Assembly: GCF_964213995.1 (NCBI RefSeq)
Contig: NC_135830.1
Coordinates: 9,052,001-9,116,000 of the forward strand
Source of the DNA: Mustelus asterias
Lineage: Eukaryota
Reading direction: 5' to 3'
DNA length: 64,000 nt
The translations under genes and the position numbers were made by a program. Below are positions 4,086-34,771 of the stretch, in pieces. Each line of letters begins with the position of its first letter. The first letter of the stretch is position 1. The notes under the pieces are model-generated. The model searched no databases and was not told the DNA's origin. It saw nothing but the letters and a program-made list of their open reading frames with translations.

Positions 4086-4560
4086 ATGTTCCCTGCGTGT
4101 TCTACTGATGATAATGGACATGCTGCCCCGTGAGTCTGAGCTCAAATCCTCAGTGTGTGTTCAATGGGTTATATTCACTCACAGATTTCTCACACAGTCT
4201 ATATGTTGTTACAGGAACCAATGGCCAAACTTCAGTTTCCCAGGAGCCGCCTGAATTAACGGTTCAGGAAGTACAGACGGTAATTTTGAACTGCAGTTAT
4301 AAAGCTAAGTACGTTGACCAAACTCTATTCTGGTACATCCTGTATCCCGGAGAAGCTCCGAGATATTTATTGAAAAGTTACGGCCAGGGGAAGGGGGATA
4401 AGTCTCCTGATTTTTCGGACCAGTTTTCTGCTAATTTGGACAGAGACAAGAAAACAGCTCCATTAAATATCACCGGGGTCCGTGTCTCTGTCTCTGCCGT
4501 GTATCTGTAAGTGTGCGCTGAACCGCAGTTACAGAGACGCAGTTAGTCCGTACAAAAACC
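4086..4560 (+). pseudogene. TRAV/TRDV: TCR alpha/delta-type V segment pseudogene (leader 4086-4129, V exon 4215-~4523, degenerate RSS 4524-4560)
   Basis: V exon reads QTSVSQEPPELTVQEVQTVILNCSY...LFWYILYPGEAPRYLL...DFSDQFSANLD...PLNITGVRVSVSAVYL*. YYC is broken by a frameshift and stop; the leader ATG is out of frame by 1 nt (M-SLRVLLMIMDMLP, GTGAGT donor); heptamer CGCAGTT, 21-bp spacer, nonamer ACAAAAACC. Confidence 0.85.
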
Positions 4561-5942
4561 AGCAAAGGCATTCTCACCTCCTCTCACTGAATCCGATCTC
4601 TGAGCTGGATTGTGAACAGTTAATAGAAACAAAATCATCTCATTAAAACCAATTAAACCGAATGATCAGGTTCTTTGTGCTGAATGTCTGTCAGTGTATG
4701 TAAAATCCCTCTTTATAGTAGTTTCTGTCGTTTACGAGCAACTCTGAATAGGAGACTCTGGTGCTGTAATGACCAACATGAAATAATTACAACATGAAAT
4801 AAAACTCATCAGAGGCATATCTCAAAAATCATCTCAGTCAAAAACCATACATTCGCTTTAATGCACTCTATGTATCAAAGAGAGCGATGATTGTTCAGTC
4901 GTTTGATTTCTTGAAGGCAGTTGATAGATTTGTGGATATTCAGGGAAATAACGGATATGGAAGTAGTCACAGAGTCATAGAGGTTTACAGCATGGAAACA
5001 GACCCTTCTGCCCAACTTGTCCATGCTACCCTTTTCTAACCACTATGCAAGTCCCAATTGCCCGCGTTTGGCCCATATCCCAACAAAATATTTGTCTGAG
5101 CATGAAGACTTATCCCGCGGTTTCGATTTCCCATAGCACTTCTGGTGATTACAGCAGACTTTTAAAGAAAGACTTTCGGGCATGTGGGCTTTGCTGGCTC
5201 GGCCGCTATTTATTGCCCATCCCTAGTTGTCCTTCAGGAACTTTCTGACGCTCTTCTCAATTAGATTTTTGCATTCAGTCGATTTTCTTACCAAATGTTC
5301 CAGTGTCTAGAGTACACCAAACTTATTCTTCGAGATTATTAATAGAGATATTAATCATTGTTCATTGGATTCTAAGCATGTATTGAAATAAACTTTTGTA
5401 CCTTTACTGTTAAGAATTCTGAGTTTTAATATGTGTCAAGTGTTCATTGTGTTAACATGAGTCACATTCTTCCGAACTCTTTCCAATGAAGTTTCTCTTC
5501 GATTCTCAGTTGATATTTTATTTCATTACTGTAACATTGAGAGATGTTTAATCAGGCTGTTGTGATTATGAGGATTTGCCTCAGCAGGCGGGCATCAGTT
5601 TACACTATTGACTGACATATCAAACCGAACAGCATTGGTTTCTTTGCCCCGAGTGTTCTTTGAAACATCAGAACAAGGGTACAACTAGTTCAAGGCTACC
5701 TGCAGCATTTTGAATTCTCAATGTTCGTGCCGATTTCCCGGTGATTCCAAATAAACAACAGCTAATTCTTCCCTCGCACAGTGAATGTAATAATCAGACA
5801 GAATCTGTGAACGATTTTAGATGGTGTTTGTGTGAATTGTGGTCTGGTTTGCGTTCACAGGAATGTATTGACGTGTTAGTTTATAACCCGCTGTTAGAAA
5901 CAACACTCGACAGACAGCAGCTGTGACTCAGAAACCTGCGGC

Positions 5943-5981
5943 AGTTTTTGTACGAGGATTTCACTCGTTCTCATCACTGTG
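5943..5981 (-). other. 23-bp-spacer RSS of the intact TCR V
   Basis: CACAGTG (5981-5975) + 23 bp + ACAAAAACT (5951-5943). Confidence 0.97.
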
Positions 5982-7026
5982 AGACTCTGTGCACAGTAAT
6001 AGACCGCAGTGTCAGACAGCCGCAACTCCGAAATAGTCACTCGGTACAAATTGTCTGACTGCTGGACTGAATCAGAAATCCGGGTCTGAGCGAAATCCGC
6101 CTTTAATTCAAAACCGCCGTTCTTGTCTCTCCGGACTGCAAACTCGGGCTGTCTGCCTGGATATTGACGGTACCAAAATAAATAATAAGCACCGTCGTTA
6201 AAGGTGCAGTTTAAAGTGACATCTTCTCCCTCTGTCCGTGTGAGTGAGGATTCCCGCTGAGTAACAGAATCTCCATCGCTCAGATCTGAAACACACGGTT
6301 AAAGAAAGAAAAAACATTGTTTCAAAGTTCAATTGAACTAAGAGAGAAAATTCACTGACAGTGTAACATAAAAATATGTATTGAATGTATTGAATCATGC
6401 CACATTCTCTCCAACTGATCTATGTTCCCGTTTACAATCCCCTGGAGATTCCTCCCTCTCGCCTCTTCTCAATGCATCTGTCCCTTTCTTCCTCAGCTGT
6501 TTAGTTTAGTTTACCTTTAAATTAATCTTTGCTCCTCTCCTCAAGTGTTCATTGTGTTAATATGAGCCACATTCTACCCAACTCTTTCGAAAGCTGTTTC
6601 TCTCCGATTCCCAGTTAATCTCTTTGTTTCCTTGGAATCATGAGACATATATTTGGAATCCTTCCACAAGTGGAATCATCCTCTCCCCGTCCACCACACC
6701 AATCCTCTATTTAATTGTAAATAAATCAGTCAGGTTTTTTTCGTCAGTGGAGAAGTTAATCATAACCTTGCATTCTGATAGCTCTCATCTTCCAATCCTG
6801 GTACCATCTCTCGAAATCGCCGTTGCAGTGTGCTTTTCGAATCTATTTTCAAAAGATTAAAACCACTCGCAAGGATTCATTTGTGTTCTACGGCAGGTCC
6901 AATACCTGTATAACATGAATGTCCTGCTTTTCAACTTTATCCCTCCAGAAAATAATTCATTTTTAAAGTGTTAAACTCACCAACAATGAATGTCACCCAG
7001 ATCAGAGAGAAAAAGGGGAGCCGCAT
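5982..7026 (-). CDS. TRAV/TRDV: Intact TCR alpha/delta-type (likely delta) V gene segment: leader exon 7026-6981, V exon 6285-5982
   Basis: Spliced translation MRLPFFSLIWVTFIV/DLSDGDSVTQRESSLTRTEGEDVTLNCTFNDGAYYLFWYRQYPGRQPEFAVRRDKNGGFELKADFAQTRISDSVQQSDNLYRVTISELRLSDTAVYYCAQS. Phase-1 GTGAGT/TTCAG intron, no stops, canonical C-W-YYC. Missed by the ORF track. Confidence 0.92.
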
Positions 7027-7117
7027 TGCTGCTGCTCCTGGATTGCCGGGACCTGTGGCTCCGAAAACTGCAAAAGATCGAACAAGATAAAGTTGAGAGC
7101 ATTGGCTGTGGCTGGTC

Positions 7118-7125
7118 TGACGTCA
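7118..7125 (-). promoter_or_regulatory. CRE (TGACGTCA) in TCR V promoter
   Basis: Perfect palindrome about 92 bp upstream of the leader ATG at 7026. Confidence 0.6.
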
Positions 7126-7819
7126 CACCCTGCAGACCCTATGGTCGGAAGAGCGGAGATCACTGAATGGAGAATAAAGAGCTGATTGGATATCACAATC
7201 TACAAGTTAATTTATTCCTGACAGCGTCATCAGGTGATATCCAATAAGCTCCTGGGCGCTTTACTCTGGATTCATCCAATCAACTGAGAGCTCCTTTCTG
7301 CTAATTCATGACATCAGAGCGGGGAGCCGTGACGGGAACAGGAATTAAACACAATGTGGTCCCGTCAACAGTTTATGTCTTGGAGGTGTGGGAAGTGAAG
7401 GGAAACAGTTCGTACTGTGTTGCTATTAGTGCTGGGGGCTCCCATTAAAAGAACCATTACATCTGACCACAGTTAGTATAAAGTTTGATAGAAGGCAGCG
7501 AGATCGAACCGCTTTGATAATGTAAACAAATGTGGGCAATTCCACCTATGAGATGAATGAAATGGGGGCGGGTTTGCAGGTTTGAGCCGAATGTAAGGTT
7601 GCAGCAGCAGCTAGAATCAGACAAACTGTGAGGACCAGCTCAGCACAATATATTTTCAGCGTTCTTAATATCACAATCCGTCATCATACAGTTTAAAATT
7701 TAAGAAAATGCTCATTGGACTGAATGCCTCTATTTCAGATTCTATGTCTCTCATTGTTTGTCCAAATGAAATAACTGAATAATATTTCAAAGATGTAAAG
7801 GAGGAATTGTCTTGGGTTT

Positions 7820-8245
7820 GATTAAATTTGATTTGATTGGATTTATCGTTGTCACATATAGTGGCATACAGTGGAAGGTATTGTTTCTTGCATGCTACAC
7901 AGACAAAGCTTACCGTACATACAGAACATAGGGGAGAAGGACAGGAGAGGGTGCAGGATTCAGTGTTACAATTAAAACCAGGGTGTAGAGAAATAAAAGC
8001 TTAATGTATGGTAGATCAATTTAAAAGTCCAATGGCAGCAGGGGAGAAGCTATTCTTGAGTAGGTTGGTACGTGACCTCAGAAATCTGTTTCTTTTTCCC
8101 AACGGAAGAAGGTGGAAGAGCGTATGTCCTGTGTGTGTGGGGTCCTTGATTATGCCGGTCGCTTTTCCGAGGCAGCGGGAAGTGTAGATAGAGTCAATGG
8201 ATGGGAGGCTGGTTTGTGTGATGGACTGGGTTTCGTTCAGAACTC
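7820..8245 (-). mobile_element. Rex1/Babar-like LINE 3' end
   Basis: Translation LPSIDSIYTSRCLGKATGIIKDPTHTGHTLFHLLP...KNSFSPAAIGLLN followed by a 3' UTR with an (AAATC)n tail. Confidence 0.8.
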
Positions 8246-9038
8246 TTGGTAAAGAGCAGAGATGTGGAATTATTTCGATAGCCCATGCGAAGTCCTGGCA
8301 CAGGCACAATGGGCCAACAGACTCCTCCTTGACTGTGCGGTGCACAGATCTCCGTCTGCAACTGAAGTGACTGAACAAATAACTGCTGTCGGTGCAGACC
8401 TGGCTCAATATCGCGGTGATTATATTAATTTGGATTAACCTTTCCCGCACAACAGTCAAGAGCTAAAGGTTAACAAAACGCATAGAACTAAAGAGCAGTA
8501 AAATATTAACAGGCTTCAGCCCGCCCGAGAAACCATTTTCCTGAGGAATGGATAGCACCATAGAGTCATAGAGTCATAGAGGTTTACAGCATGGAAACAG
8601 GCCCTTCGGCCCAATTTGTCCATGCCGCTCTTTTGTTTAAACCGCGAGGCTAGTCCCAATTGCGAGCATTTGGCCCATATCCCTCTAAAACCATCTTACT
8701 TATTCTACTGATCACTGATTTCTTTTAAAAAGCTGACTGTGGTCAATCTCAAATAAACAGCATGGCATGTGCATTACCCAGTGACTCGATTGCTTTTGTT
8801 GGACAGTCATGTTTGCGTTTCAATGCTGTGTATTTCAGAGATATTCAATTCAGAATGTGTTATCTTGATATTTAATGTTGAATAACTGGATATAACTGGT
8901 TGAAATTATTCTACGGAAGATGAGAAGGATGCATTTATGCTTTATCAGAAATCACTGCCCCCTTAGTCATTTGCCGGACGAACGCTTTTCAATTTTGAAA
9001 TTCTAGAGAAGTTGAGATATAAGGTTGAAAGTAGCCAT

Positions 9039-9165
9039 GATGTTGAGATGCTGGCGTTGGACTGGGGTGGGCACAGTAAGAAGAATCACAACACCAGGGT
9101 AAAGTCCAACATGTTTATTTGGTAGCACGAGCTTTCGGAGTGCTGCCCCTTCATCAGGTGAGTGG
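9039..9165 (+). mobile_element. Short interspersed repeat, probably a Penelope-like terminal fragment (second copy at ~60497-60624)
   Basis: GCGTTGGA.TGGGGT.GGCACAGTAAG...CACAACACCAGG.TAAAGTCCAACA...CTTCATCAGGTGAGT occurs twice in the window. Confidence 0.55.
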
Positions 9166-9837
9166 AGAGTTGGGTTCACAAACAGGGCAACCGTTTAATG
9201 TAACGCCTGTCTTCTTGTATTGAGGTACATGAACTCTCAGTCTAACCATTAGAACCTGCAGCAACAGAGCGGAGCTGAACAATGCAGAGAGACCGATCGT
9301 TAGTTCCAGAAATAGTAAATTGAGAATCAGGACATACAGATTAAATAAATTGATTGATATTAAATGTTGAATGAAGCTGTGCAGGTTAGGTGGACGGGCA
9401 TGCTAAATTGCTCCTTGTGTTAGATGGATTAGATATGGGAAATGAGTCGTGTTACGGGGATAGGACAGGAGAAAAGGCCTGGTTACGATACTATGCCGTC
9501 GCTGCAGATTCGCTGGGCTGAATGGCCTTTTCAACATGTAGGCAATCTATAAACCTATGAAACAAATACTGAGTATATTTGGTTGAAATTATTCGCAGGA
9601 AGATAAGATTGAAGTATTAACGATTGCGCAGAAATCTTTGCTTCATTAGACATTTGCCACACGAAAGCTTTTTAATTTTAAAGTACAAATTAAATTGAGA
9701 TATCAGGTTGAACGTAACGGATGTGTTTTTCTCTTCAGTGACATGGGCTCTCGATCTTACCATTCGAACTTGCAGCAACACAATGGAGTTGAGCGTTGTA
9801 GTCAGGCCAATTGGGAGAAAAGGGCAGTTGGTCACTT

Positions 9838-9910
9838 GTTTGTGGAGTCCAGTGATTGTCACGTTCGCCTCACACGCTGAAGGTCCCCAGTTTAAACCTG
9901 GGCCGAAACG
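9838..9910 (+). pseudogene. tRNA-Val(CAC) pseudogene
   Basis: 73 nt resembling vertebrate tRNA-Val-CAC (TCACGTTCGCCT-CAC-ACGC..AAGGTCCCC); acceptor stem, D-arm and B-box (GTTTAAA) are mutated. Confidence 0.8.
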
Positions 9911-9939
9911 TTAATTTATTTTTCTTGTGTAGGGTGAGG

Positions 9940-10330
9940 GAAATCTGTCTGATTTCAGTTTGTTGCTGAACATTATCCGAATCTCGATGTTGCAGCCATT
10001 TTATATTTGCTCTGGCCTCGGCCTCAAATTCTTTGTGTCAAATAAGAAATGCTGAATTTTTGCGACGCAATGACAGAAACGAAACGTTCCTATTTTGACA
10101 CCGTGCACATATCAGCAAGCAGTCCAGTCTACTGCCCAATTTAATGGGTTTATAGGTGCAGACTAACATAGTTAATCACTATCTGAAACATGTCTAGAGT
10201 GAGTGAAGTCTGTATGATTTCAGTTTGGGGCTGAATATAATCGGAATCTCGATGTTACAGACATATTATCTTTGCTCTGACCTCGGCCTCAAATGCTTTC
10301 TCCAAAATCAGAAATGCTGAATTTTATGAC
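9940..10330. repeat. ~125-bp direct duplication (9940-10070 and 10205-10330)
   Basis: Both copies read TCTGT.TGATTTCAGTTTG..GCTGAA...GAATCTCGATGTT.CAG...CCTCGGCCTCAAAT...AGAAATGCTGAATTTT. Confidence 0.8.
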
Positions 10331-10618
10331 ACAAAGTTTACAAAATTGTGTAAATTCTCTCAGACATGTTGAATTTTGTCCAAAATGTATTTGAGTTTAG
10401 CATTTATTTAATGTCCTAATCTTATTAAATGAATTTTCTTTCATAGAATTTAACTTAAAATAGTCGGTTTCAGTTCATAAACAATTTCCTAACATTAACT
10501 TCTCCAGAGAAGCTTAAAAAGTGTTGGTCAGCATTTATCTGAATAAGTGTAAAGCTATTGAAGACATTTTTCATCGAAAGTAACATGGAAATTGTGAGCA
10601 TGTTTTAAAAGTTTGCAC

Positions 10619-10691
10619 CGAGCCAACCAGGAGTCGAACCTGGAATCTTCTGATCCGTAGTCAGACGCGTTACCCATTGCGCCACTTGCCC
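10619..10691 (-). tRNA. tRNA-Arg(ACG)
   Basis: GGGCAAGTGGCGCAATGGGTAACGCGTCTGACTACGGATCAGAAGATTCCAGGTTCGACTCCTGGTTGGCTCG, 73 nt, intact A/B boxes, TTTT terminator downstream; one A:G mismatch in the acceptor stem. Confidence 0.9.
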
Positions 10692-11800
10692 ATATGTCAA
10701 GAAGTTGCAGTTGTTGCACATTGGCCCGATATTTCGAAAGTTTCAAGCAGAAACTTTGTCAAAACGTTTGCGTTTACTTGTGAGGAAATGGTCCATCATT
10801 GCGATTGTCTTTATTCATTTACAATCATCTCTAATTGCCCTTGAATTGAGTTGCTGAGTTAACCTGCCGTGTTGGAATTCAAACTGCTGTCCAAAGACTA
10901 TAAGACGACCAAACCACGAACCATTCCCCTCAGAGAATCAACGCTCGAATATTACTTGAATGTAATACTTTACACGCATATAGCATTAGCTCTTACATAT
11001 GCCTCAATATGCATTCAGAAAGAAAATGAAACTGAGGTGCTGAGAATCCACTGCACACTGAGCAGGAAAAGTCATGCTCCTATTTTGACTCAACACACAC
11101 TTTCTCAGTTCGTGCAGTGGCTACAAGAACAGTTCAGAGGCTGGGAATCCTGCGGAGAGTAACTCACCTGACTCCCCAAAATCTGTCCACAAGGCACAAA
11201 TCGGGAATGTAAGTGAATGCACCCCACTTGCATGGTTGGTACAGGAACTCACCAAATACACCTTAGGCAGCACTTTCCAAACCCAAGACCGTTACCAGGA
11301 GGAAGATTCCCTCCAAGCCGACCACAATGTTGACTTGGAAATGTATCGCTGAACCTTCTCCGTCATTGGGAAAAGGTCATGGAATAACCGCTCCCCCCGC
11401 CACTAACAGCACTATGGATGTCCTAGACCAATAGACTGCAGCAGTTCAAGAAGGCAGCTCACCGCCACCTTCTCAAGGAAATTAGTGATGGGTAATAAAT
11501 GCCGGCCGAGCCAGAGACACCCGCATCTCGTCAATGAATAAACAGAAACATCCAGCCAACTGCCTGAACTGCCTGAACGGGCAATCATGGGGTCCCGTGA
11601 ACAGGTGAATGATGATAAAATGAATGTCCCCTTCCAAGTCAACCCTTTTGAAGGCTGCTTTTCGAGCGAGCGTGTTGTGTTGATGGATTCCCTGCAGTTT
11701 GTGCTCAGATTCTCAAACCAAGCCCCATGTGAACCAATCTGTCTGTAACGGGAAGAAATGAACAAAACCTGCGAATAGGGCAATAGGAAACAACATCACA

Positions 11801-11888
11801 GAGCTCGTGCAGGATTTGAACTCATCATTTCGTGCACATTTGATCTCAAATACCAACATCAGGAATCATACCCCTGGAACAAAGAGTC
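11801..11888 (-). pseudogene. Degenerate tRNA-Pro-like sequence with a ~16-nt insertion in the anticodon loop
   Basis: GACTCTTTGTTCCAGGGGTATGATTC...GAGTTCAAATCCTGCACGAGCTC resembles tRNA-Pro GGCTCGTTGGTCTAGGGGTATGATTC...GGGTTCAAATCCCGGACGAGCCC. Confidence 0.5.
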
Positions 11889-12699
11889 TGCACTTGGGGT
11901 ACTTTCACCAAATTGTTCATTTTATTCCTATTAATAATTCCATCTTTCATAAGGTTGTATTAATAATTTGTTATGAATAGAATCTTGTCATCGCCCTAAC
12001 CAGCAAAGTCTCATAACAACTAAAATGTGCGTGTGTGTGTATATATATATATGTATATATATATACTGGTTATCAGCAAAGCATGTCATTAAGTCCAATA
12101 GGTTAAGCACAGATAGAATTAAAACCTCTCTCCACAATCTGGTATCACATTATAGGACAGGTATGGTATAGGTGTGATGCAGTACAAATCTCCCTCCACA
12201 TTATCCAATCACTCATTCCCAGATTCAGTGCCGCATGCGTTAGAAACAAACGGTAACCCTGACCAACGTGAGATCTCCCGATCCTGGGGAAAGTACATCG
12301 AGATGGGGAGTCATACTAACTGAAGGTAAAAGTAAGAGAGTGAGGGAGGGTCGGCCCTTGGCTGCGTGGGGCGGTGCACATGGTGAGTAATAGAGATTCG
12401 AGCAGAAAGGAACTTTAATTTTCAACTGTAACTACTCAGAGAAGTTCTTCTGAACACGCATGCAGGCCGTTCATTCTTCTCTCCTTGAAGTTGATATGAT
12501 ATGCAAGCAAATCAAATCTCGGAGCTGAAATCCAGGACTTTAGAATGAAAAGATCTCAGCTTCAGGAATGTAGGAACATACAAAGGACCAGACCAGAATC
12601 CTCAGGACATGCTGATATCATCCACAGCCTGTAGAAGGACATGATGAGATGGAAGTGGACAGAATCGTCAGGGCATGAAGGTTTGAATGTCATTGGTAG

Positions 12700-13140
12700 A
12701 CCCCTGGGGTGATATCTTGTGAATTCAGGGGGATAGCAACAGCAGAAATGAAGCAGGCAGAGAGAATCCCTGGGGTGATGCTCAGTTAGTTCAGGGGATA
12801 GACTCAGAGGAATGGAGCCGGGACAGAGGTTCCCTGGGGTGATGTTCAGTGAGTTCAGGGGATGGAGTCAGAGAGAAAGGAGCCGGGAAAGAGGATCCCT
12901 GGGGTGATGTTCAGTGAGTTCAGGGGGATGGAGTCAGAGGGAATGGAACAGGGACAGAGGATCCCTGGGGTGATGCTCAGTGAGTTCAGGGGATGGAGTC
13001 AGAGAGAAAGGAGCCGGGACAGAGGATCCCTGGGGTGATGCTCAGTTAGTTCAGGGGATAGACTCAGAGGAATGGAGCCGAGAGACAGGATCCCTGGGGT
13101 GATGTTCAGTAATTTCGGGGGATGGAGTCAGAGGGAATGG
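12700..13140. repeat. ~65-bp minisatellite, about 7 copies
   Basis: CCCTGGGGTGAT starts at ~12702, 12768, 12832, 12897, 12963, 13028 and 13092. Confidence 0.92.
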
Positions 13141-13610
13141 TGTCTATTGCGGATAATGCATCATCGAAATGGAATCAATGGGACAATGTTAATTGACACA
13201 AAAAGGACAGTGTGAAGCAGACAGTCACTGTGTGTTCACCAGAAAACGGAGCGTGTGCGTTTCCAACAGAACATGGGGGCAAAATATCTATTTGCGTGCT
13301 AAGAGAAAATGAGAAGCGGGAGTCTCTGTATCAGATTAAACCGCATTCTCTGGGAGCAGTTCCAATAATCTGTTTATCTGTTGTTTCAGATTGACCCCAG
13401 TATCTGGGAATTCTGCGTGTTTTCCCCTAGTATATCTCATCGGCCCCAATTGCTGACAATCATTGGAAATGTGTACGAATTGCATGTTTTTTGCAGAAAA
13501 CATCCCAGTCTCTCGTGGTTAATACCCAACTGTTCTCACCGAGTTTTATATCTGGCCGGTTGGAGTTTATCATAAAAAGGCAGCAGTAAAGCTGTCATTA
13601 CACGGATGGG

Positions 13611-13624
13611 CCGCTAGATGGCGG
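13611..13624 (+). promoter_or_regulatory. Candidate CTCF site
   Basis: CCGCTAGATGGCGG matches CCASYAGRKGGCRS at 13/14; lies just 3' of the IgM transcription unit. Confidence 0.55.
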
Positions 13625-14240
13625 AGTGACTCTTTCACTGAAGAGTCTTGAGTTGAAACACATCCCAGACAGTCTGGGGAAAAATCCCAGTCTGGGAAAA
13701 GGGGGAAACCGTGTAATAGGGAAAATAGAGCGGTGTCGATAGGCTTTGGAGAATAACTCAAAGTCTGACTTAGTTTTTTTTTCACTCTAGATTTATTTAA
13801 AAAAAACAGAGAACATGTAACAGAAACGTTTGTTTTAAAGTTGATAAAGCGAATAAGCTTCACATTGAAAATAGAAAACACCTGTTCCGAGCTGTCCAAA
13901 ATATGTACACATACAACAGACACAAGAAAGATTAAACAGGAGCTAAACATATCGGGAAATGAACAATTGTGAATAAGGAACGGGAAAAATCATTGAGTTA
14001 TACTTGAAATTTAAACTACAGGGAAACTATTAATTACAGTTTACATCACAACAAAAAATACCTCATACGTTTCATATTGAGAACTGAAATACCGGCCAGT
14101 ATTGTCTCAGTTAGAGATTCAGAATGATAAACCGAGGGAATTTTACTGTTAGATTCACCGAGAGCAGATATTGTATTTGAGCCATACAGAGATCATAATA
14201 ATCAGTTGAGGGAAATCTACAGCGTCCAAAATTCAACCCG

Positions 14241-14249
14241 TCACTTGAT
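14241..14249 (-). CDS. IGHM: IgM transmembrane exon TM2 (IK*)
   Basis: CTCTTTTACAG|ATC AAG TGA, in phase 0 with TM1; candidate AATAAA at 13797-13792. Confidence 0.85.
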   Translation of the reverse strand: MK

Positions 14250-14389
14250 CTGTAAAAGAGAGATACAATAATGAAGCAGATATTTATGATGCGGGGCATT
14301 AATGTTAGAGTTTTAAATCAATAAAACGTTCAGAGATTTTTCAAATCCCTTCTATCAGTTTGAAATGTGGATTAATTGAATCATCTCAC

Positions 14390-14517
14390 CTTCACCAGAG
14401 TGACAGCAGTGCTGTAAAAAATGCTCAGGAAGAACAGGACGATGAATGTGGAAGCGGTTGTCCAGATGTTGCTGTTGTCATCCTCATTGTTTTCAATCCA
14501 AATACGGTCTGTGGAAT
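14390..14517 (-). CDS. IGHM: IgM transmembrane exon TM1
   Basis: TAG|(D)[42 protein letters not shown]|GTGAG, with the conserved antigen-receptor TM motif; joins the internal Cmu4 donor at 18002/18001. Confidence 0.95.
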
Positions 14518-17939: not shown

Positions 17940-18331
17940 TCATTGACATGAATTAACGGTATCCATCAGTGCAAGAGAAATGTTCACAAAACTGGGTTTA
18001 CCGCTGGATTTGTCAACCGTTCTGTTGATGATCTTCAAGGGGATGGCTTCATGTCCCACCACACATGAGTAAGAAGCGCCACTGGCCCACTCCTCCGCTG
18101 CAATGGATAACAGGCTGTACATGAAGAAGGAGCCATTGCCGTTCTCCGCCACCACCTCTGTGTTCCTGTAGTTCCCGGGATTCACCGGCTTGTCATTGAT
18201 GGTCCACTTGACGAAGATCTCTCGGGGGGAGAAACCTCTCACTAAACAGCTGAGGGAGATGAATCTCTGAGCGGAGACGTCTTCCGCCGAGGGCAGGAGG
18301 ACAGAAACGGAGGGTTCCTGTGGATTTTTAA
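17940..18331 (-). CDS. IGHM: IgM Cmu4 exon plus secretory tailpiece
   Basis: (V)[42 protein letters not shown]...[49 protein letters not shown]. Tailpiece has the NIS glycan site and penultimate Cys; AATAAA at 17912-17907 and 17903-17898; internal G|GTAAA donor for the membrane form. Confidence 0.97.
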
Positions 18332-19472: not shown

Positions 19473-19772
19473 CTTCTTCCTTGTGGATAGATAGTCTTAA
19501 AGGAGTTGGCTGATCCTCATTGCTCGCCACACATTCGAACACGTCCCCACTCTGCCAGGCTTGTGTCGAGATGTTTAATTTGCTGACTACACTGCCTGAA
19601 TGTTTCTCGACAATCTCTGATTTTAAAGGTTTCTTTCCTTGGCTCCAGGACATGTTGAATCCAGCGTAAGCGTTAGAAATGACACATGTTAAGGTCACGG
19701 TCGCCTCCAGTAGGACCTGTTCTATGGGAGGAGGCAGGAGAGTGATCCTGGAATTGGTGCATGTGGGAGAAT
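19473..19772 (-). CDS. IGHM: IgM Cmu3 exon
   Basis: 300-bp phase 1-1 exon: (D)[44 protein letters not shown]...[35 protein letters not shown]; CAG/GTGAG splice sites. Confidence 0.96.
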
Positions 19773-21376: not shown

Positions 21377-21691
21377 CCAGAGATCCGGTGATGTTCTGAC
21401 TCTGGGTGAATCCTTGATGAGTGACCTGGCAGGTATAGACCGCTTTGCTGAACCATTCCCCAGCGGAGACTGTCAGCCGACTGCTCGCCGAGAAGCTCCC
21501 GTTCACTTCACAGACGGGAGAGGTGACAATTCCTGAATCCATGGGTTGTCCATTCTTCAGCCACTTCACCGTCATTGACTGTGCCTGGAAATCGACGATT
21601 GAACAGACGATGAATGCAAATTTGCTACTTGTGATTTCTTCACTGGAACTCACGGTGAGGATAACGGTTGGAGGGATGCCACCTTCAGGAC
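21377..21691 (-). CDS. IGHM: IgM Cmu2 exon
   Basis: 315-bp phase 1-1 exon: (C)[53 protein letters not shown]...[35 protein letters not shown]; AAG/GTAAG splice sites. Confidence 0.96.
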
Positions 21692-21757
21692 CTTGAGAAA
21701 ACACATATTAGTTATTTCCTACAGAAGATGTTGATCAATCAAACTTCTGTCTACATT

Positions 21758-22198: not shown

Positions 22199-22498
22199 AT
22201 GGCATTTCAATGCTCTTGACTGAGTCGCTGTGTCGAACCTCACAGTCGATTTTGCTGCATTCTCCCTCTGACTCGGTGATGGTTAACTGGCTGCTCAGGG
22301 TATAGGTTCCCTTCGTGTTTCTCACTGACGGGTAAGTCTTAAACCCAGTGTTGATCGGCTGCCCATTTTTCTTCCAGGTCAGACTGGTGATTTCTGGGGA
22401 GTAGTCCATTGCCAAACATCCGTAGGTGACGGAGCCGTCAGTGTTGTGTTGCTGACAGGAGGAGACCAGGCTGTAGAGAATGGGCGGAGACGGTGTCG
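22199..22498 (-). CDS. IGHM: IgM Cmu1 exon
   Basis: 300-bp phase 1-1 exon: (A)[99 protein letters not shown]; light-chain-binding Cys present; CAG/GTAAGT splice sites. Confidence 0.96.
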
Positions 22499-26393: not shown

Positions 26394-28210
26394 GTGTGTG
26401 TAAATGTGCCTGTGTGTGATAAACTGCGTTTGCACGTGTGTGACATAGTGGGCTGCGTGTGCAAGAGGGGAGAGTGTACGTGAGAGAAAGGGTGTGTGAG
26501 ACAATGTGTGTGGGAGAGAGAGAATGTGTGTTTGAAGAGTTATTCTTTGTGTGTGAGAGTGTATCTCTTCTGAAAGTGTGTGTGTGCGGAGGGGCGGGGA
26601 GAGTAGGAGTCTGTGTGAAAGAGTACTTCTGTGTGTGATTGAGTGTGTGTTTATGTGAAAAGGAGTGTGTCCGTATGAGATACAGGGTGTCTGTGAAAGA
26701 GAATGTGTGTGCCTGAGAGGGAGGGTATGTGTGTGGGAGAGAGTGTTGTGTTCATGTGAAAGACAGTATGTGTGAGAGGGAGTGCCGATTGGAAAGTAAA
26801 ATAATATGTTCATCAGTGTCTGAAGGTGTGCATGGTATTGCGTCTGAGTGAGAAAGATGTGTGCAATGTGTGTGNNNNNNNNNNNNNNNNNNNNNNNNNN
26901 NNNNNNNNNNNNNNNNNNNNNNNNNNNNNNNNNNNNNNNNNNNNNNNNNNNNNNNNNNNNNNNNNNNNNNNNNNNNNNNNNNNNNNNNNNNNNNNNNNNN
27001 NNNNNNNNNTGTGAGAGTGTGTGAGACACATGAATGCTTTTGCACGTGTGTGAGACAGTGGTCTGTGTGTGCAAGAGGAGAGAGTGTGCATGAGAGAAAG
27101 AATGTGTGTGTGAGAGATAGTGTGTGTGTCTTTATGTGTGTGAGAGTGTGTCTCTGTTCTTCAAAGTATGTGTGTGTGTGTGTGTGTGTGGAGGGGCGGG
27201 GAGAGTGTGTGTGAGCGAGAGAAAGTGTGAAAATTAGACAGAGTGGATGCGTGAGTGTGTGTGAATGAAGTAACTGTTGAGAGAACATGTGTCTGTGATA
27301 GGTGGAGTGTTTAAGAGAGATACATTGTGTATACATGTGTGTTCGTGTGTGAGAGACGGAGAGACTGTGTGCGTGTCAGAGAGAGGGTGTTTGTGAGAGA
27401 CAGTGTTTGAGAGCAAGGTTTTGCATGTGTGAGATAATGTATAAGGGAGTGAGCGTGTGAAAGAGAGAGAAATATGTGCCTGTGTGAGAGAATGCGTGCG
27501 CAACTATTCGCATGAGAGAGGGAGCATATGAATGAGTGTGAGATGGAGTGAGAGTATACGGAAGAGTGAATGTGAGAGGGATAGTGCATGTGTGTGTGTG
27601 TGAGGGAGAATGTGTGCACGAGACTGTGCTTATTTGAGAGACTGTGTCTGTGTGTAAGAGTGCGTGTTAGAGTGTGTGCATGTGTCTATGTTTGTGAGAG
27701 AGTATTTGTGAGAGAGCCAGTGTGTGAAAGGAAGAATGTACAGGTGTGAGATAGTGTGTGCAAGAGAGATAGGAATATGTGCGTGTGTATGTGAGAGAGA
27801 GATGCGTGTGCAAGAGGAATTGTGAGAGTGTGTGTGAATAAATGTGAGACAGCTTGAGCGTGTGTGACAGAGTGTGGGAGAGAGAGTGCATGTGAGAGTG
27901 CGTGTGCGAGACTGTGCTTATGTGAGAGTATGTGTCTGCGTGTAAGAGAGAATGTGTGTGGGGATGTGATTGCTTTTGTGTAAGGGCGTGTGAGAGATTA
28001 ATTGAGAGAGCGAGAGTATGTACGTACTTGTATTGAGAGAGTGTATGTACAACGCGAGAGAGAGAGAGAGAGAATGTGTATGGCTGTGTGAGAGAGATCG
28101 TATGAGAGAGAAAGTAAGTGTGAGTATGTATTTGTGTGTGCATGTGTGAGAGAATATGAGAGTGTGCATGTGTGTATCTATGTGTGTGAGAGTGTGTGAT
28201 GTGTGTAAGT
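26394..28210. repeat. Degenerate (GT/GA)n tract containing a 135-N gap (26875-27009)
   Basis: Low-complexity GTGT/GAGA sequence on both sides of the N run. Confidence 0.9.
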
Positions 28211-31200
28211 CTCTATCTGGCTGATTTAGTCTGGAAAAGCACCCTCACTCCACACACACTCACCCACTCACACAGTAAGTGGGAGTGACATGTGAGCACA
28301 ATACGGACCGCGGGCCAAAGGTTGGAAAAACATTTAACTCTTTCACAAGTCAGTCGCAATTGAATAATTTCCTCTTTTCTCAATGAGCGAAACTTGTAAA
28401 AACTCAGGACATTTGACACAATCCAGGGCAAAGCCACCCACAAGATTACCCAACCCCCTCATTCACCCTATTCACTCTCTCCATCACTAACAAGCAGTGA
28501 CAGCAGTGTGTATAATATACAAGATGCACTGCAGCAACTCACTAAGGCTCCATAGAAAACACTGTCCAAACCCGCTGCCTTTGCATCCTAACAGGACAAG
28601 GGCAGCAGCCACATATGAACACTACCACCTGCAAGCTCCCCTCCAAGACACACACCATCCTGACTTGAAACAATATCTCAGTTCCTTCACAGTCGCTGGG
28701 TCAAAATCCTGGAACTTCCTGCCTAACAGCACGGCGGATGCCTGCAGCATATGGACTGCAGTTATTCAACGATGCTTCATAGCAACACTTTCTCATGGAA
28801 CAATTAGGGAAGATTAAAAATTCTGGCCGAGGAAATGACTCTAAAAGAGCCTTTAGAAAATTAAAAATAAGATGCAAATGAATTTGACCCTTCAACTGTC
28901 ATACTAAACAGGTCAGGGACTGCTATAGTACGGATCACAATATAGTAAATCTCACTTTGCATTTGTTCATCGAACATTCTCAAGGCCGGTACATCACTGG
29001 TTAAAAATCACCCAATTCTCCCTCTGCAGTCTGACGTTTCTGCTCTGTCTGATGGTCGCAATATGCTTTGGGGATCTCATTTCTGAGACGCCGAGTCAAA
29101 CATCAAGTCAAACTGTCACATTTCTCACAGATACAAGTGTATTGAAGAAATAAATCAAATTTCACTCCCTGAAATACAGCAGAAGGAACCAGAAGATTTA
29201 TAGCCAGTCAAACAGATTCCTGGTCCCAACACAGTGACCACGCGCACAGAAACAGAACAGACACAAACGGTGCAACAATCGAGTGCCCAGCAGATAGATC
29301 TGTTCAATCTGTCAATTTCATTCAAACTGTTGGATTCTAATTGATCAATGGTCAACTTACAACAACAGAAAATCAATAATCTATTTTAAATTAAACTGAT
29401 ATTCATTTCAAAACTCCTTTCGACTGTTAATTATTTCTCTGTCTCACTTCTCGAAAACTATGTGAAAATGTAATTTCGCTGAAAATGAGCAATCAAAAAT
29501 AACAGATTCAGGACAGTTCAATGTCCCTAACAGAGATGCAGTGACACAGTAAGAAGTAAACAAATCGGGAATCATTTACATTGAAAACCATTACTGATTA
29601 GAACTAATTTCTTAATTAAATGTAATCAACAAAATAATCAAAGCAAAGCACTTTATTGAGCTGAGCACAGCTGAGTAAAGTAATGTTTTTTTCTGAATTC
29701 ATTTTCGATACAATTAAATGTTCTCTAAAACGGATGATATTTTGCACGCCAGTGCAATATTCAAGGTCTTTTGTTTTAACTTAATCAGCACCAATATCAT
29801 ATTTTAAGCTATTGTTAATTGCCTGTTAGTTCTCCTGTCAGCTCATTTGTATTCTGTAATAAAATGAGTTTTCAATTATTCAACATGCTTCTGCCTCCAA
29901 CAGTGTTAAATAATTGGGTTACAATTAAATCTTAGACAATCTTAAACAATAATTTCAAATTACTGAATGGAAGCATTCAGACATCTGTCATTCAGTTACT
30001 TAAATCTAATCACATTGTAATATTTTACTTTTTCACTTTTACTACAAATGTCTTATTATAATCTACAAACGTGTTAAAATGCATACTCCTGAATTTGTAC
30101 AGAGTGTAACGGCCTGGCAGTTTGAAACCAATAATTCTGCTTCCTGGATTTAGTAATTTCGACCATCCATATAACTTAATTACTGAACATATTGTTGAAT
30201 TAAAGAAGATCTGAATTAAACAGTGCAAACACAAAGAGGACAATTGATTCAAATCCTCTGTAACACTAAAACACGATGCAGAATATAAGTCTAGACCTTT
30301 TCTTCATTATAATATTTAATAAGAATTAAACATAAGCTTCAGATAGAATCAATTCTTCTATTCTGTCATTTATTCTTCCCATAATTTTATCCTGTATTTA
30401 GCAGTAATGGGAGACATGCTGTTATTATTAAGTGCAGAGCTAATATTATTTTAATAATATTTATAATATTATTATATTTTATATAAATTAATCTTTTTGA
30501 ATTTCAAGCATTAACTTGTCCATCTCTAGTCAGTTTCTGTTGACAATTTACTACAAACACAATCATATGAACAATTACTTCAGTGTCAGCGAATTCCACC
30601 TGTCAGAAAACTCTGTTCGCTCTGTCAAGTGTATTCAAACTGTTTGATTCTAATTGATCAAAGGTCAAATTACAACAACAAAACAAATCAAGACAAATTT
30701 TAACTTAACCTGATGTTCATTTCAAAACTCCCTTCGCCTTTTAACTGTCTCTCCCTGTCTGTCTCAAATCCCAAAAACTAGGCAAAAATGTATTTTTCTG
30801 AAAATGAGCACGTCAAATATAACAGATCAGGGTCGTGTAATGTCCCTAACAGAGATACAGTGACACAGTAAGAATTGTAATTCATGATTTATTTTAATAT
30901 GTAAGCATCAGTTAACATGAATAAGATGCCCTAACATATATTTATTTTATTTTTCCGAAACCTGTTTGCTTTATCCCCACAAGAATTTTCAATTCTTTTT
31001 TTCATTTTCATTTAGCCAGAAAACGTGTAACCGCTCAGTTGAACCAATACAGAAACAATTGAGAAATACCAAACGATTTCACAAATTTTGAGGTGAGATT
31101 AGTAATAAACTATCTCGGTATCCAATTACAAATTACTTGGAATTAATAATCTGGTTGCGGCTGCACAGAAACAAAATGTGAATAAGCGGATACAAAAATT

Positions 31201-33061
31201 GCCAAAAAGTAACGTCTTACTCTGCAAAATTCGTATTCCAGTGAATGCGAACTTAATCTGGGATATAACGATTAATACAAAGTATATTGCTGAACTGAGC
31301 GCTGCTGTGGAAACAGCATGTTATCATTGAAATAGTTTCTGGAATTATCACAAAATATTTCCAGTCTGGAAAATTTTCTGGTCATGTTAATTGTGTGAAA
31401 AGCACAACAGAACTATTAAAGGGGATTAATGCTAATTTATATCAATATAAAATAATCTTGGGTGAATATGGAGTTATATTACCGATTAATAATTGTTTGT
31501 TTTATATTAATTTTACTTTTAAACTTGTTAATGAGAAGTTTGTGATTGCAACAACGACTTCGTGTCCGAATGAGCGTTGTAAGTCATGATTTACTTTAAT
31601 TTGTAAGGTTTAGTTAAAATTTATAAAAATGTTGGAATATCTTCATTTTAGTTATTTTTCCAAAACCTACTTGTTTTCTCCCTACAAGGGTTTTCAAACT
31701 CAAAGATTGTTTGCATTCAACCAGAAGACGTCTAACCGCTCAGTGGCACCGAGTTGAAACAATGCAGAAATAATGCCGTAACGCCAAACCATTTTACACA
31801 TTTTAAACATTCATAGTGATCGAACCACAGAATCTCTTCAGCAAAAACACACCAAAACACTTCAATGAGGGAATGAATCCGTTTCACGGACAAACAGTTC
31901 AATTGTCCATTCAACAGAATCAAATGTAACAATGCAAGAAAATCTCAATATCGAATCTAGCAAACCAACTCCTTACCAGTTATTAAACTAAACAGAAATC
32001 TGGAATAATAGCAACAGCAATAGCATTGCGGGGATGTGGAATGTGTTCAACAAATTAGTATTGAAACTTTATCACATTTTATTCATATTGGGTCATATTT
32101 CAAACATATTTAAACATTTGGATGGTAAAAGCTGCAGCCATCAAATGCCACCGAGATGAAACATTGCAGGTACCCCAAATTGTGAATGCAGTGAAAAAGT
32201 ATGTTCTGAACGAGCGGCGTAAACCGTGGTTTAGTTTAACCTGCAATTATCACTTAAGATTTAAAAAATACAAATACAACAACGCCTGCCTGATTTCTGC
32301 CTGCAGTCATGCGTCAAGCAGTTGCAAACCCGCAGACTGTTCGTATTCAATCACAAAGCGTGCGTCACCGAGTTTAAACAATGCAGAAGCACCAAACTAT
32401 TTCACAAATTTTACTTATTCAAAGTCGACCAGACAAACAATTTCCTCACCAGAGAAACACATCACTGAGAGACTGAACCCTGCTTCCTGCAGAAGCAGCT
32501 CAATTCTACAAACTCTTTCAACAGAATCAAATGTAACATTGACAGAAATTTTTGATATATATTCCAGCCAATCCGCCACCACCAAAGTAATTAATGTTTA
32601 AAATAAACAGAAATATTGCATAGCAGCACCAGCATTGTGAGTGAGTGGAATATGTTCACTGGATTAATATAGAAATTTTAGCATTTTAAAAAAATGTTGG
32701 GTTGGATTTCAAACACTTGTACAACCCGCAGCCACTAGATGTCACCGAGAATAAACATTGCAGAAACGCCGAATTGTTGAACAGACGTTAGGCTTTTAAA
32801 GTAACCCAGCCACACAGTAACTCAACAGATAAACACAAAAGCACAACAACTAGGGATTGAATCCCTCAGCAGCACCGATTGTCAAGAAACAGCGGAATTC
32901 CAGAACCCATTTGCAGCAGAATCACGGGAAACATTGTAAAAATTCACAATCGAGAATCCACCAAACCCACATTTAAGTAAACAAATGGATTATTAGTATA
33001 GGCAAAAATATAAAACAAAGACACATGCAAACCAGTTTCTCAATAAGTGCATGGTTCTTAC

Positions 33062-33148
33062 CTGCAGTCACCGTCACCATGGTTCCTTGTCCCCAGTAGT
33101 CGAAGTAGTCACAATGTCACATTCCCTGGGTTGTGTCATACAATAACC
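33062..33148 (-). CDS. IGHJ: IgH J segment (coding 33109-33062) with a 5' 23-RSS
   Basis: GGTTATTGT-23bp-CATTGTG, then YFDYWGQGTMVTVTA and a G|GTAAG donor. Confidence 0.97.
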
Positions 33149-33474
33149 GTCCCTGCACAAAATAGACACAAGAGCAACATTATTTTAAATATTCACAAAC
33201 CAGAGGAAAAACAAAGTCAATTAATGTTCATTAAATTATCATTGTATTTCTGGATACCATTCTCCATTCATAAATGACCCGAATGTTTTATATTTCACAG
33301 AGGAACACATGAATATGTTATTGAAAACACCAACTGATAATTGAGTAATTATCACAGATTTTCCATATTCATTCTTATCATGTGGTCAGTGCTGGACAAA
33401 AATAATACTGTATTGTGATTAAAGTTGGAATTTAAAAGTGACACTGATCCAGCTTCAATCAATCAATGCTGAGG

Positions 33475-33539
33475 GGTTTTTGTATTGACAGTAACTGCTG
33501 TGCCATCCAGGCACAGTGAGACACAGCATGACAAATACT
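33475..33539 (-). other. IgH D2 segment (CCTGGATGG, 33511-33503) flanked by 12/12 RSS
   Basis: AGTATTTGT-12-CACTGTG | D | CACAGCA-12-ACAAAAACC. Confidence 0.93.
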
Positions 33540-33848
33540 GCGGCAGGCTGTTCACTGTAAAATACAAAGATTTGATTTTACTGCTATTTCAAAAGCCTGT
33601 TTCCATCTCGTTTAAGAGTGAGTCAGTGAGATATTTCAACTTTTACTGGTCATGATGTTGATAAAGGGGATTAGAAACTTTTACACTCTCCGTTCACACT
33701 TAGCATGTAAATAAATAACAATAAAGTTGAAGCATTTTATATCTTTTAAAAAACAATGCTGCTTCTACCTATTATTTTGTTGAATCCTCATTTTGTTTGG
33801 CATTCCGCAGTGGCACTGATCACATATTTAAGCAAAGTCCTTCTCTGA

Positions 33849-33926
33849 GGTTTTTGTATGAGGATGTCGCTGTGCTCAGCACTGTGACCCCATCGTATCA
33901 CTGCGACACACACCCGTACAAAAACT
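33849..33926 (-). other. IgH D1 segment (ATACGATGGGGT, 33898-33887) flanked by 12/22 RSS
   Basis: AGTTTTTGT-12-CGCAGTG | D | CACAGTG-22-ACAAAAACC, the 12/22 layout typical of shark D1. Confidence 0.95.
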
Positions 33927-34260
33927 GCACTCATTCTGTTCAGTACTGCCGCTCAATATTCACTTCAAATGGACCATTTGTTCGGCTCTAATTTAAAATG
34001 TAGGCAACTGTTTATATAACACAATCTATCAGAAATATTAAAACGATAGTGCTGTACTTGCTGAAACGACAATAAATATAAAGTCAGTGAAAAGCTCACC
34101 CCGTTATATCGGTGACTTTTCAAATTTTACTGCTAAATGCTTTCTTTGTTACTTTTTAAACACGATTATGGTTTGATTCTGACCACTGTCGGTCATATTA
34201 CATTTAAAACAGATACTGACCTTCAGGTTATGATGGAAGTTGCTGAATTCCCTCACGAGC

Positions 34261-34299
34261 TGTTCTTGTCCGGGTGCAGCCCTGGTTCCTCTCGCTGTG
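34261..34299 (-). other. 23-RSS of VH
   Basis: CACAGCG-23bp-ACAAGAACA directly after YYCAGD. Confidence 0.92.
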
Positions 34300-34771
34300 G
34301 TCTCCTGCACAGTAATAGATGGCCGTGTCTTCAGTCTTCAGGCTCGTCATGTCCAAGGCGAAGATGTTGTTTGAAAGGTCTTTGGACGCAGTGAATCGGC
34401 CCTGAATCCCGGAGGCGTAATATTCGTTGGATGAATCTTCGTAGCTAACCAGCCACTCCAGCCCCTGTCCGGGAACCTGCCGGATCCAACTCATTTCGCT
34501 GCTGTCAAGATCGAAGCCGCTGGTTTTACAGGTCAGTCTCAGGGATCCTCCGGGACGCCCGGTCTTTGCCTCTGGCTGAGTCAACACAACCTCCGACTGG
34601 ACACCTGTAAAAATAGATCAAGAAACCCGAGGATTAATCCTGGTACTGATTTTTGAATCTGGAATATTATAGAGATAGACTGAGACAGCAACAGTGAGAG
34701 ACTTGGACAATAAAAACCTACTCACCGGATAAGAAAGTCAGCAACAAACTGAGACAAATCACCGACCTCAT
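34300..34771 (-). CDS. IGHV: IgM VH gene segment: leader exon 34771-34726, V exon 34604-34300
   Basis: [117 protein letters not shown]; open frame, canonical splice sites. Confidence 0.97.

Follow-up and report, generated by a model that had tools for sequence, protein, structure and literature searches.

An intact IgM cluster joined to TCR alpha/delta-type V segments in Mustelus asterias and a possible cluster organization of its TCR-delta genes

The stretch of DNA analysed here, referred to as the window, comprises 64,000 nt of the Mustelus asterias genome (GCF_964213995.1, NC_135830.1, 9,052,001-9,116,000), with the feature under study at positions 4086-34771. On its minus strand lies an IgM cluster of the order V-D-D-J-Cmu1-4-sec-TM, with an open frame throughout. 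The VH leader exon (34726-34771) begins with ATG, ends at a GT donor and continues in frame into the VH exon (34604-34300), which possesses a Pfam V-set domain and spans 34261-34604 together with its 23-bp RSS. Next in order are DH1 (33898-33887; 33849-33926 with a 12-RSS of variant heptamer and a 22-RSS), DH2 (33511-33503; 33475-33539 with its 12/12 RSSs) and a JH segment with a WGQG motif (33109-33062; 33062-33148 with its 23-RSS). The constant region consists of Cmu1 (22199-22498), Cmu2 (21377-21691), Cmu3 (19473-19772), Cmu4 with the secretory tailpiece (17940-18331), TM1 (14390-14517) and TM2 (14241-14249), the last terminating in IK and a stop. AG/GT ends were found on all of these exons, from leader, VH and JH to the secretory tail and both TM exons, and translation runs without a stop in the secreted and membrane forms alike, in agreement with the preliminary description, which had called the cluster intact. 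The gene fits the plan of a shark IgM minicluster, with a single V, two Ds and a single J ahead of Cmu1-4, the secretory tail and the TM exons.

The RSS spacing of the cluster is V23 / 12-D1-22 / 12-D2-12 / 23-J, and the RSS of the VH is CACAGCG-23-ACAAGAACA. It had been stated that every RSS is intact, a slightly generous wording: the 5' heptamer of D1 (CACTGCG) and the heptamer of J (CACAATG) retain CAC but are off consensus, while the paralogue at 7.06 Mb on scaffold C71 has the consensus. The CDR1 (GFDLDSSE) and CDR2 (YEDSSNE) of the VH are as previously quoted. Paralogues are numerous, with about 105 Cmu4 exons in the assembly at ≥69% identity (150 scored of 528 candidates) and 119 matches to TM1 (127 candidates scored).

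Beyond TM2, and with no N in between, lies V1 (5943-7125, minus strand), an intact TCR alpha/delta-type V whose ATG at 7026 is 7,215 bp past TM2 on the strand shared with IgM; the spacing of about 7.2 kb, the shared strand and the lack of a gap had all been described correctly. This segment has a CRE-type motif (TGACGTCA) at 7118, a split leader (7026-6981), an open exon (6285-5982) with a V-set domain, and the RSS CACAGTG-23-ACAAAAACT. In a V-domain comparison of 5982-6285, proposed earlier, V1 grouped with orectolobiform TCR Vs (57-67% identity, clade support 85/83, unstarred), against 32% identity to VH, and by this comparison it is a TCR alpha/delta-type V segment, nearer to TCR V than to VH. 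A sequence search of the PDB with V1 gave antibody fragments for all of the best 60 of 10,935 matches and was uninformative. The region does indeed mix IgH and TCR genes, as had been claimed, the IgM cluster adjoining V1. There are 24 copies of V1 in the assembly at ≥87% identity, 13 of which sit 27-35 kb 3' of a C-delta gene; judged by these copies, V1 belongs to a three-V block normally found just downstream of C-delta.

The second member of the block, V2 (3924-4560, plus strand, CRE motif at 3924), is an inverted TCR V pseudogene. At 4086-4560, where the V genes adjoining IgM had been taken to start, it lies in the orientation opposite to IgM and has a stop at the last Cys, a lost heptamer and a broken leader frame; its relatives on contigs C96 and C420 retain an RSS. 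Of V3 (3159-3187, plus strand) only the spacer and nonamer are present, the exon being lost to a 200-N run (2959-3158). Contig C132 runs into V3 at its positions 249617-249916, and C132 and four paralogues continue through V3 where the window meets the N run. The run is probably a scaffold join, a reading that rests on the break in homology, the run itself being indistinguishable from masking. Across the 200 kb to its left, 0 stretches of ≥1 kb align with C132 249.6-322 kb at ≥97%, and because of this the sequence left of the run in C71 is probably a different contig.

Between the IgM cluster and the V block, the IgM 3' flank (8746-14240, minus strand) is 89-91% identical at 8746-11174 to the flank of the IgM on C124 and 76-87% identical at 11914-13549 to the flanks of other IgMs, and contains a tRNA-Arg(ACG) at 10618-10692 (ARAGORN). 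Alignments place the junction at 8695-8746, IgM-flank homology stopping at 8746 and V-block homology beginning at 8695-8732, beside a short dispersed repeat (8559-8699). Since C132 carries window positions 3159-26874 at 99.89% identity, this junction has been assembled twice. A scan allowing up to 3 mismatches found no RSS at 8695-8746 and, with the dispersed repeat alongside, a RAG-made germline deletion was rejected as its source. Derivation of the window from the C71:7.06 Mb cassette by simple deletion was also rejected, as the two IgMs are of different subfamilies (Cmu3 64% aa, flank 77%), and the event may have run in either direction. Ectopic recombination among segmental duplicates likely fused the IgM cluster to the three-V block, and the window as such is an unremarkable by-product of this dynamic region.

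The preliminary description had placed the IgM gene in or at the edge of a TCR alpha/delta V array, with VH or VH-D1 joining TCR-delta D/J segments further left by cis deletion. VH and V1 do face the same way with compatible spacers, the N run makes the left neighbourhood uncertain, and the scaffold order may be wrong. However, IgM clusters on C71 span 1.6-19.3 Mb and that of the window sits inside this field, while V1 is of the type that follows C-delta. The 200 kb to the left (the context being uncertain past the N run) yielded no TCR D/J/C, nor did the gap-free C132 242-322 kb, which takes in the 75 kb after the V in the 99.9%-identical copy; in neither does V1 lie upstream of D/J/C in the same orientation. 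Protein and DNA searches of C132 (1.04 Mb) gave no match to C-delta. C71 has three C-delta genes, all on the plus strand and 1.9-3.2 Mb from the minus-strand VH of the window, and so the VH would need an inversion, not a deletion, to join a D-delta of this scaffold; the C-alpha genes of C71 are also all on the strand opposite to the VH. The V-array-edge arrangement was therefore rejected and is, to us, the least probable reading of the locus. The IgM of the window would act as an ordinary B-cell gene whose VH could reach a D-delta only via megabase inversion or in trans, and V1, stranded but intact, would need a distant D-delta or J-alpha.

The same set of 19 C-delta loci was obtained from the assembly with a whale-shark C-region protein search and with a DNA search. 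Their product comprises a C1-set exon, a connecting peptide and a TM with charged R and K, and the three exons are open with GT-AG ends in all 19. Identification as C-delta follows from the D segments upstream and from 61% identity to a catshark protein labelled like the gene marked IgWVTCRD in Table S1 (PMC12227049); protein matches labelled Mustelus asterias are probably from the same genome and hence not independent. The canonical nested TRA/TRD translocon, in which C-delta is single and lies immediately upstream of J-alpha and C-alpha, was not found on C71, where the gap-free 120 kb before J-alpha holds no C-delta. No C-delta was seen before J-alpha on C546 either, but a 200-N run between its V array and J-alpha (at C546:129,550) could hide one.

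The copy counts all derive from a single assembly, which retains near-duplicate contigs, C132 repeating the window at 99.9%, and some of the C-delta copies are therefore alleles. It could be argued that the cassettes are mostly unpurged haplotigs of a very heterozygous region with one to three TCR-delta loci, the window being a neighbourhood of the published IgM/TCR-V type; 16/19 copies are indeed on small contigs, and 13 are within 2% of each other. A diploid has two alleles per locus, yet there are 19 different gene sequences (16 CDS, 15 proteins), 0.07-8.75% apart, in clades with their own intron insertions and different upstream NAR-Vs, and we regard such an assembly effect as very unlikely. 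Single linkage gave 18, 16, 14 and 8 groups at 0.1, 0.3, 0.5 and 1%, only 1 pair being as close as the window and C132 (about 0.1% apart), and the three copies on C71 lie in different neighbourhoods. Nineteen distinct sequences in a diploid imply at least 10 loci, and the open-frame C-delta genes likely represent at least ten real ones.

Nine of the 19 cassettes were read upstream of C-delta. The order begins with NAR-V, D and J, followed by a supporting V-delta and additional Vs, an IgH-like one among them, and continues with D-delta (12/23), some six J-delta, C-delta and the V block. D-delta (free or joined) and Js are present in 9/9 of those read and NAR-V/D/J with a supporting V in 8/9, and a NAR-type V occurs 16-58 kb upstream on the same strand for 15 of the 19 C-delta genes. 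By gene order the cassettes fit the NAR-TCR layout, in which a NAR-type V-D-J stands before a leaderless supporting V-delta and then D/J-delta; the NAR label is a probable one, based on the lack of a CDR2, a J of DGSGT type and the order of the genes. A three-domain V-V-C product is predicted by gene models. An IgH-like V lies upstream of 11/19 C-delta genes, in the position expected of a TAILV (an IgH-like V without an Ig C, upstream of D-delta), of which it is a candidate; it groups with VH at 100/100 support and is 57% identical to the catshark IgV-on-C-delta. In five cassettes V and D are pre-joined. A V-D join is present on C850, and since the cassettes on C96, C119 and C436 (1.2-3.7% apart) share one V-D junction, the join predates their duplication.

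The cassettes could be real but passive, carried along as a region rich in repeats, tRNAs and zinc fingers underwent segmental duplication, with one or two serving T cells and the rest young and silent. The C-delta Ig exon varies in a nearly neutral manner (37 nonsynonymous and 12 synonymous variant codons, ratio 0.99), for which reason many copies may be young and unselected; stops are present in some J and V copies, and tRNA-Val arrays and ZNF genes lie nearby. On the other hand, all 19 C-delta frames are open, those of the clade 8% away included, conservation is evident in the TM exon (ratio 0.14) and the NAR-Vs differ between cassettes mainly at CDR1-type positions; the zero stops among 62 variant codons lend weak support. 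Passive carriage thus seems unlikely, though less so than an assembly effect. When contigs from 4 of 22 public runs were aligned with the final J-to-C-delta stretch, neither a copy number nor, among the joints listed (108 more lay beyond the listing), a J-C joint emerged. Those from runs X2 and X6, whose types are unrecorded or guessed, end where the C exon ends at its 3' side, and the one from X6 extends upstream by 285 letters that fall off the stretch, which fits a spliced transcript as a weak hint. No transcript with VH on C-delta was encountered.

An IgM TM exon is found within 100 kb of 5/19 C-delta genes, and an intact unrearranged IgM was demonstrated in one of these five cassettes, that at C71:7.06 Mb, where a complete IgM gene lies directly upstream of the cassette, 4.5 kb ahead on the same strand. 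At C71:11.0 the IgM is pre-joined with an insertion in the V, and on C123 the near TM is an orphan exon; the IgM on C96 was read as far as Cmu2, and the fifth such cassette is on C110. The cis-deletion geometry proposed for the window, which fails for that copy, does occur at C71:7.06-7.14 Mb, where an IgM VH (77% identical to that of the window) is 55.8 kb upstream of a same-strand 12/23 D-delta. This VH, at 7.061 Mb, has the CDR1 GFDLGSYS, and the C-delta of its cassette carries a private 3-base insertion. A deletion of 56 kb would here bring VH (23-RSS) onto D-delta (12-RSS), and such joining would turn 'trans-rearrangement' into short-range cis recombination.

Taken together, it is probable that the IgM of the window was fused, likely by ectopic recombination, to a post-C-delta V block, and that TCR-delta is present as 19 open-frame miniclusters, likely standing for ten or more real loci. 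Rearrangement would take place within each cassette, as in an Ig minicluster, with NAR-TCR, IgH-like-V or conventional delta chains as the inferred products. Rather more tentatively, and with our own judgement close to evenly divided, we suggest that TCR-delta in the houndshark-like lineage may have left the nested TRA/TRD translocon for Ig-style clusters: at least ten functional miniclusters of the NAR-TCR/TCR-delta kind, a separate C-delta in each, some germline pre-joined and some IgM-headed, in which a short cis deletion could send one VH to C-mu in B cells or to C-delta in T cells. If true, this would provide a shark counterpart to the TCR-mu clusters of marsupials and a second instance of TCR V genes joined in the germline, and would raise the questions of how one delta chain per T cell is chosen among many loci, and how this is done without TRA rearrangement deleting TRD. 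Because the C-delta paralogues carry distinguishing variants, the IgM-headed cassette makes a cis or trans origin of IgH-TCR-delta chimeras directly testable.

The mixed IgM/TCR-V layout has already been published. In the elasmobranch antigen receptor complex (AgRC), IgM miniclusters show linkage with TCR alpha/delta, and TCR-type and NARTCR V exons lie between IgH clusters (Flajnik et al. 2025, PMC12227049), and in the white shark IgM is interleaved with TCR Vs over 8-17 Mb (PMC12227049, Table S1). The same paper describes TCR alpha/delta as a translocon, and its Table S1 gives, for catshark and stingray, a single delta gene immediately ahead of TCRA, while for white and epaulette shark it has no model of C-delta. 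Mustelus asterias shares the IgM miniclusters mixed with TCR Vs; it differs, and the present findings are new, in the 19 open-frame, mutually different C-delta miniclusters, none of them seen beside J-alpha/C-alpha and five with pre-joined V-D. From the parts of the literature consulted on shark NAR-TCR, TAILV and IgH-TCR-delta trans-rearrangement (cited in PMC12227049, PMC3457774, PMC6795676), the shared features are NAR-V/D/J before a supporting V-delta, and IgH-like Vs upstream of D-delta with a VH 23-RSS matching the D-delta 12-RSS. As far as those parts go, the cassettes differ in that each NAR-V/supporting-V pair has its own D, J and C-delta, and in that one cassette has a complete IgM gene just upstream. 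Detachment of TRD from TRA is shared with the newt and with the second TRD locus of birds and flounder (PMC12698447), for which the portion consulted describes one or two TRDC-J-V clusters, compared with a likely ten or more in the present assembly, and does not mention IgM interleaving. Marsupial and monotreme TCR-mu (PMC7615758) likewise has tandem clusters, a two-V TCR-delta-derived chain, a C for each, a pre-joined supporting V and zinc-finger neighbours. Its Vs are VH-like, however, with a fully joined invariant V-mu-j, and it lies away from TRA/D, whereas the shark cassettes have NAR-type Vs, several Js and joins of V-D only, in some copies, and lie among IgM clusters. Membership of the cassettes in TCR-mu was rejected on the NAR-type N-terminal V and the V-D-only joins, and the likeness between the two is one of convergence.

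The IgM cluster lies on the minus strand, beginning with an open leader exon (34771-34726) and an open VH exon (34604-34300), followed by D1, D2, JH, Cmu1-4, the secretory tail, TM1 and TM2. Each exon has AG/GT ends and both the secreted and membrane forms translate without a stop, so the cluster is intact, as a preliminary description had held. The RSS scan returned the expected spacings (V23, 12-D1-22, 12-D2-12, 23-J), but two heptamers are variant, and the claim that all RSS are intact is somewhat generous. The TCR-type V described past TM2 was also recovered: V1, on the same strand, starts after 7,215 bp; its exon is open, a CRE motif lies at 7118 and its 23-RSS is near-consensus. A second V, V2 (4086-4560), is broken and on the strand opposite to IgM. 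A tRNA-Arg(ACG) gene (10618-10692) sits between TM2 and V1, and a broken VH-like fragment (46894-47139, minus strand) lies ~12 kb upstream of the leader exon; other IgM clusters have comparable fragments ahead of them. Contig C132 is 99.89% identical to window 3159-26874 and includes the IgM-V junction, which is therefore not a single-contig chimera. The observation is confirmed, and its interpretation is partly supported.

The window occupies 9.052-9.116 Mb of the 20.4 Mb scaffold C71. IgM Cmu4 exons span at least 1.6-19.3 Mb of this scaffold (150 of 528 candidates scored), and 119 matches to the IgM TM exon occur genome-wide (127/127 candidates scored), which places the cluster inside a field of IgM clusters and not at the edge of a V array as proposed. 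TCR delta segments had been expected further left; no D, J or C was found within 200 kb left of the window, where there are only broken V fragments (8.86-8.89 Mb) and tRNA arrays, nor in the next 75 kb of C132, and protein and DNA searches gave no C-delta match on C132. One tRNA array consists of ~40 tandem tRNA-Val genes (8.899-8.940 Mb). A 200-N run (2959-3158) interrupts a third V, V3, through which C132 continues, while sequence left of the run has no match of >=97% and >=1 kb to C132 249.6-322 kb; the run is thus probably a scaffold join. Left of it is a C2H2 zinc-finger ORF (1806-2798, minus strand, 331 codons, ~11 fingers); the C71:7.17 Mb cassette, too, is followed by ZNF arrays.

A query with the C region from a whale-shark TCR protein (P0004) identified 19 C-delta loci (55/55 candidates scored), and a DNA search gave the identical 19 (40 of 1,629 candidates scored; the remaining 21 were short repeat matches). 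In all 19, the C, connecting-peptide and TM exons are open with GT-AG ends. The sequences are all distinct, 0.07-8.75% apart (16 CDS, 15 proteins). Thresholds of 0.1, 0.3, 0.5, 1 and 2% sort them into 18, 16, 14, 8 and 4 groups. The window and C132 differ by ~0.1%, and just one C-delta pair is equally close. In a diploid, 19 distinct sequences would imply at least 10 loci. The Ig exon varies near-neutrally (ratio 0.99), which counts against function of all copies, notwithstanding the constrained TM exon (ratio 0.14). The closest proteins overall are labelled Mustelus asterias and probably derive from the same genome; they suggest lineage and add no support. Outside it, the nearest is a catshark IgV-on-C-delta protein (61% identity), followed by sawshark, sevengill (two) and whale shark proteins (47-52%). 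Two differing C-delta-like proteins labelled Heptranchias perlo (P0016, P0017), one with a supporting V, hint that C-delta may be duplicated in another shark lineage. TCR-alpha also seems to be duplicated, with J-alpha/C-alpha loci at C71:18.37-18.43 Mb (37 J motifs) and C546:137-242 kb (139 J motifs), whose C-alpha proteins clearly differ. No V or C-delta match occurs in the gap-free 120 kb upstream of the C71 J-alpha; on C546, where a V array is followed by a 200-N run interrupting the stretch, no C-delta was seen.

The cassette at C71:7.06-7.17 Mb is entirely on the plus strand. It is headed by an IgM V-D-D-J-Cmu1-4-TM with open frames, followed after 4.5 kb by a NAR-type V-D-J, a supporting V-delta, a further V, a VH pseudogene, an IgH-like V, D-delta (12/23), ~six Js, C-delta, and then V1 with inverted V2 and V3. 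Its core recurs at C71:12.22-12.27 Mb, C181 and C123. The NAR-V, supporting V and TAILV-like labels are putative, assigned from gene order, the V tree and characteristic features. Counted from coordinates, with 150 of 972 and 150 of 804 candidates scored in the V searches, at least 15 of the 19 C-delta genes have a NAR-V and at least 11 an IgH-like V upstream on the same strand; two of the four without a NAR-V match sit near contig ends. Five lie within 100 kb of an IgM TM exon. Each cassette carries every segment from which NAR-TCR chains, IgH-like-V chains and ordinary delta chains could be made. Behind the supporting V-delta (L007:1239-1400; paralogues at C71:12.23 Mb, C123, C181) are 2-4 tandem 23-RSS at 61-bp spacing. 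The V1/V2/V3 block also occurs inverted upstream of NAR-V (C96:1464713-1476007, C119:534490-544266), which gives both cassettes inverted copies on their two flanks; the upstream V1 has stops in both. At C104:1006802-1008231, C105:1142055-1143484 and C122:410929-412358, a TCR-type V precedes an IgM TM exon by ~1 kb on the same strand, with no Cmu4 match beside these among 150 of 528 candidates scored. An orphan IgM TM exon is immediately ahead of NAR-V at C123:556111.

Five of nine cassettes read (C96, C119, C436, C850, C71:11.02 Mb) carry a V joined to D-delta with the V RSS gone. C96, C119 and C436 differ by 1.2-3.7% yet share a single junction, which points to a germline join predating duplication; the joins in C850 and C71:11.02 Mb are others. 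The C850 C-delta (C850:35987-36330, L143) differs from the C71:12.27 Mb copy by 0.07%, the NAR-V is a different one, and its supporting V is joined to the D of that copy with 3 bases trimmed each side, either as a joined allele or as a captured somatic rearrangement. At C71:10998799-11047059 (L047-L052), a germline-joined IgM VDJ has an insertion in V; TCR V pseudogenes lie 3 kb past the IgM TM, one joined to D-delta, followed by Js and an intact C-delta.

These cassettes bear on the window junction. Of the 24 copies of V1 at >=87% identity, 13 are found 27-35 kb downstream of C-delta, on its strand. Window 3159-8695 matches this post-C-delta block (88-95% in five cassettes) and 8746-14800 matches IgM 3' flanks (best a C124 flank, 86-91%). 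Homology switches at 8695-8746, beside a short dispersed repeat, and the scan found no RSS there. Simple deletion is the less likely origin, since the window IgM is of a different subfamily from that heading the C71:7.06 Mb cassette; we infer ectopic exchange among duplicates. On C96 and C420, too, the V1/V2/V3 block follows an IgM at a distance of 6-17 kb.

Under the 12/23 rule, a V joins a downstream D on the same strand by deletion and one on the opposite strand by inversion. The window VH is on the minus strand, pointing left, and had been proposed to join TCR delta D/J by deletion in cis. The D-delta cassettes of C71 are on the plus strand, 1.97, 1.94 and 3.16 Mb away (J-alpha, 9.3 Mb), which speaks against this; if scaffold order holds, the window VH would reach D-delta only via inversion or trans joining. 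Deletion would instead fit the C71:7.06 Mb cassette, whose IgM VH lies 55,757 bp from the 12-RSS of the same-strand D-delta and could join it.

The explanation that we consider probable joins both findings: the window IgM is fused to a post-C-delta V block, and the assembly carries 19 C-delta miniclusters, likely at 10 or more loci. The IgM/TCR-V adjacency is of a type already known and, in this case, a by-product; PMC12227049 describes IgH clusters linked to TCR alpha/delta, termed a translocon, with TCR-type Vs between IgH clusters. What appears new, and merits testing, is the expansion of TCR-delta/NAR-TCR miniclusters, which includes pre-joined copies and a cassette headed by IgM. No report of multiple shark C-delta clusters was found by title or abstract opening in the openly searchable literature, and subscription primary papers on shark TCR-delta may bear on novelty. 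The comparison with published work also covered PMC6795676, PMC5931798, PMC7615758, PMC3457774, PMC12698447, PMC12529555 and PMC5192425. In Table S1 of PMC12227049, catshark and stingray each have one delta gene before TCRA, whereas 19 C-delta genes are present here.
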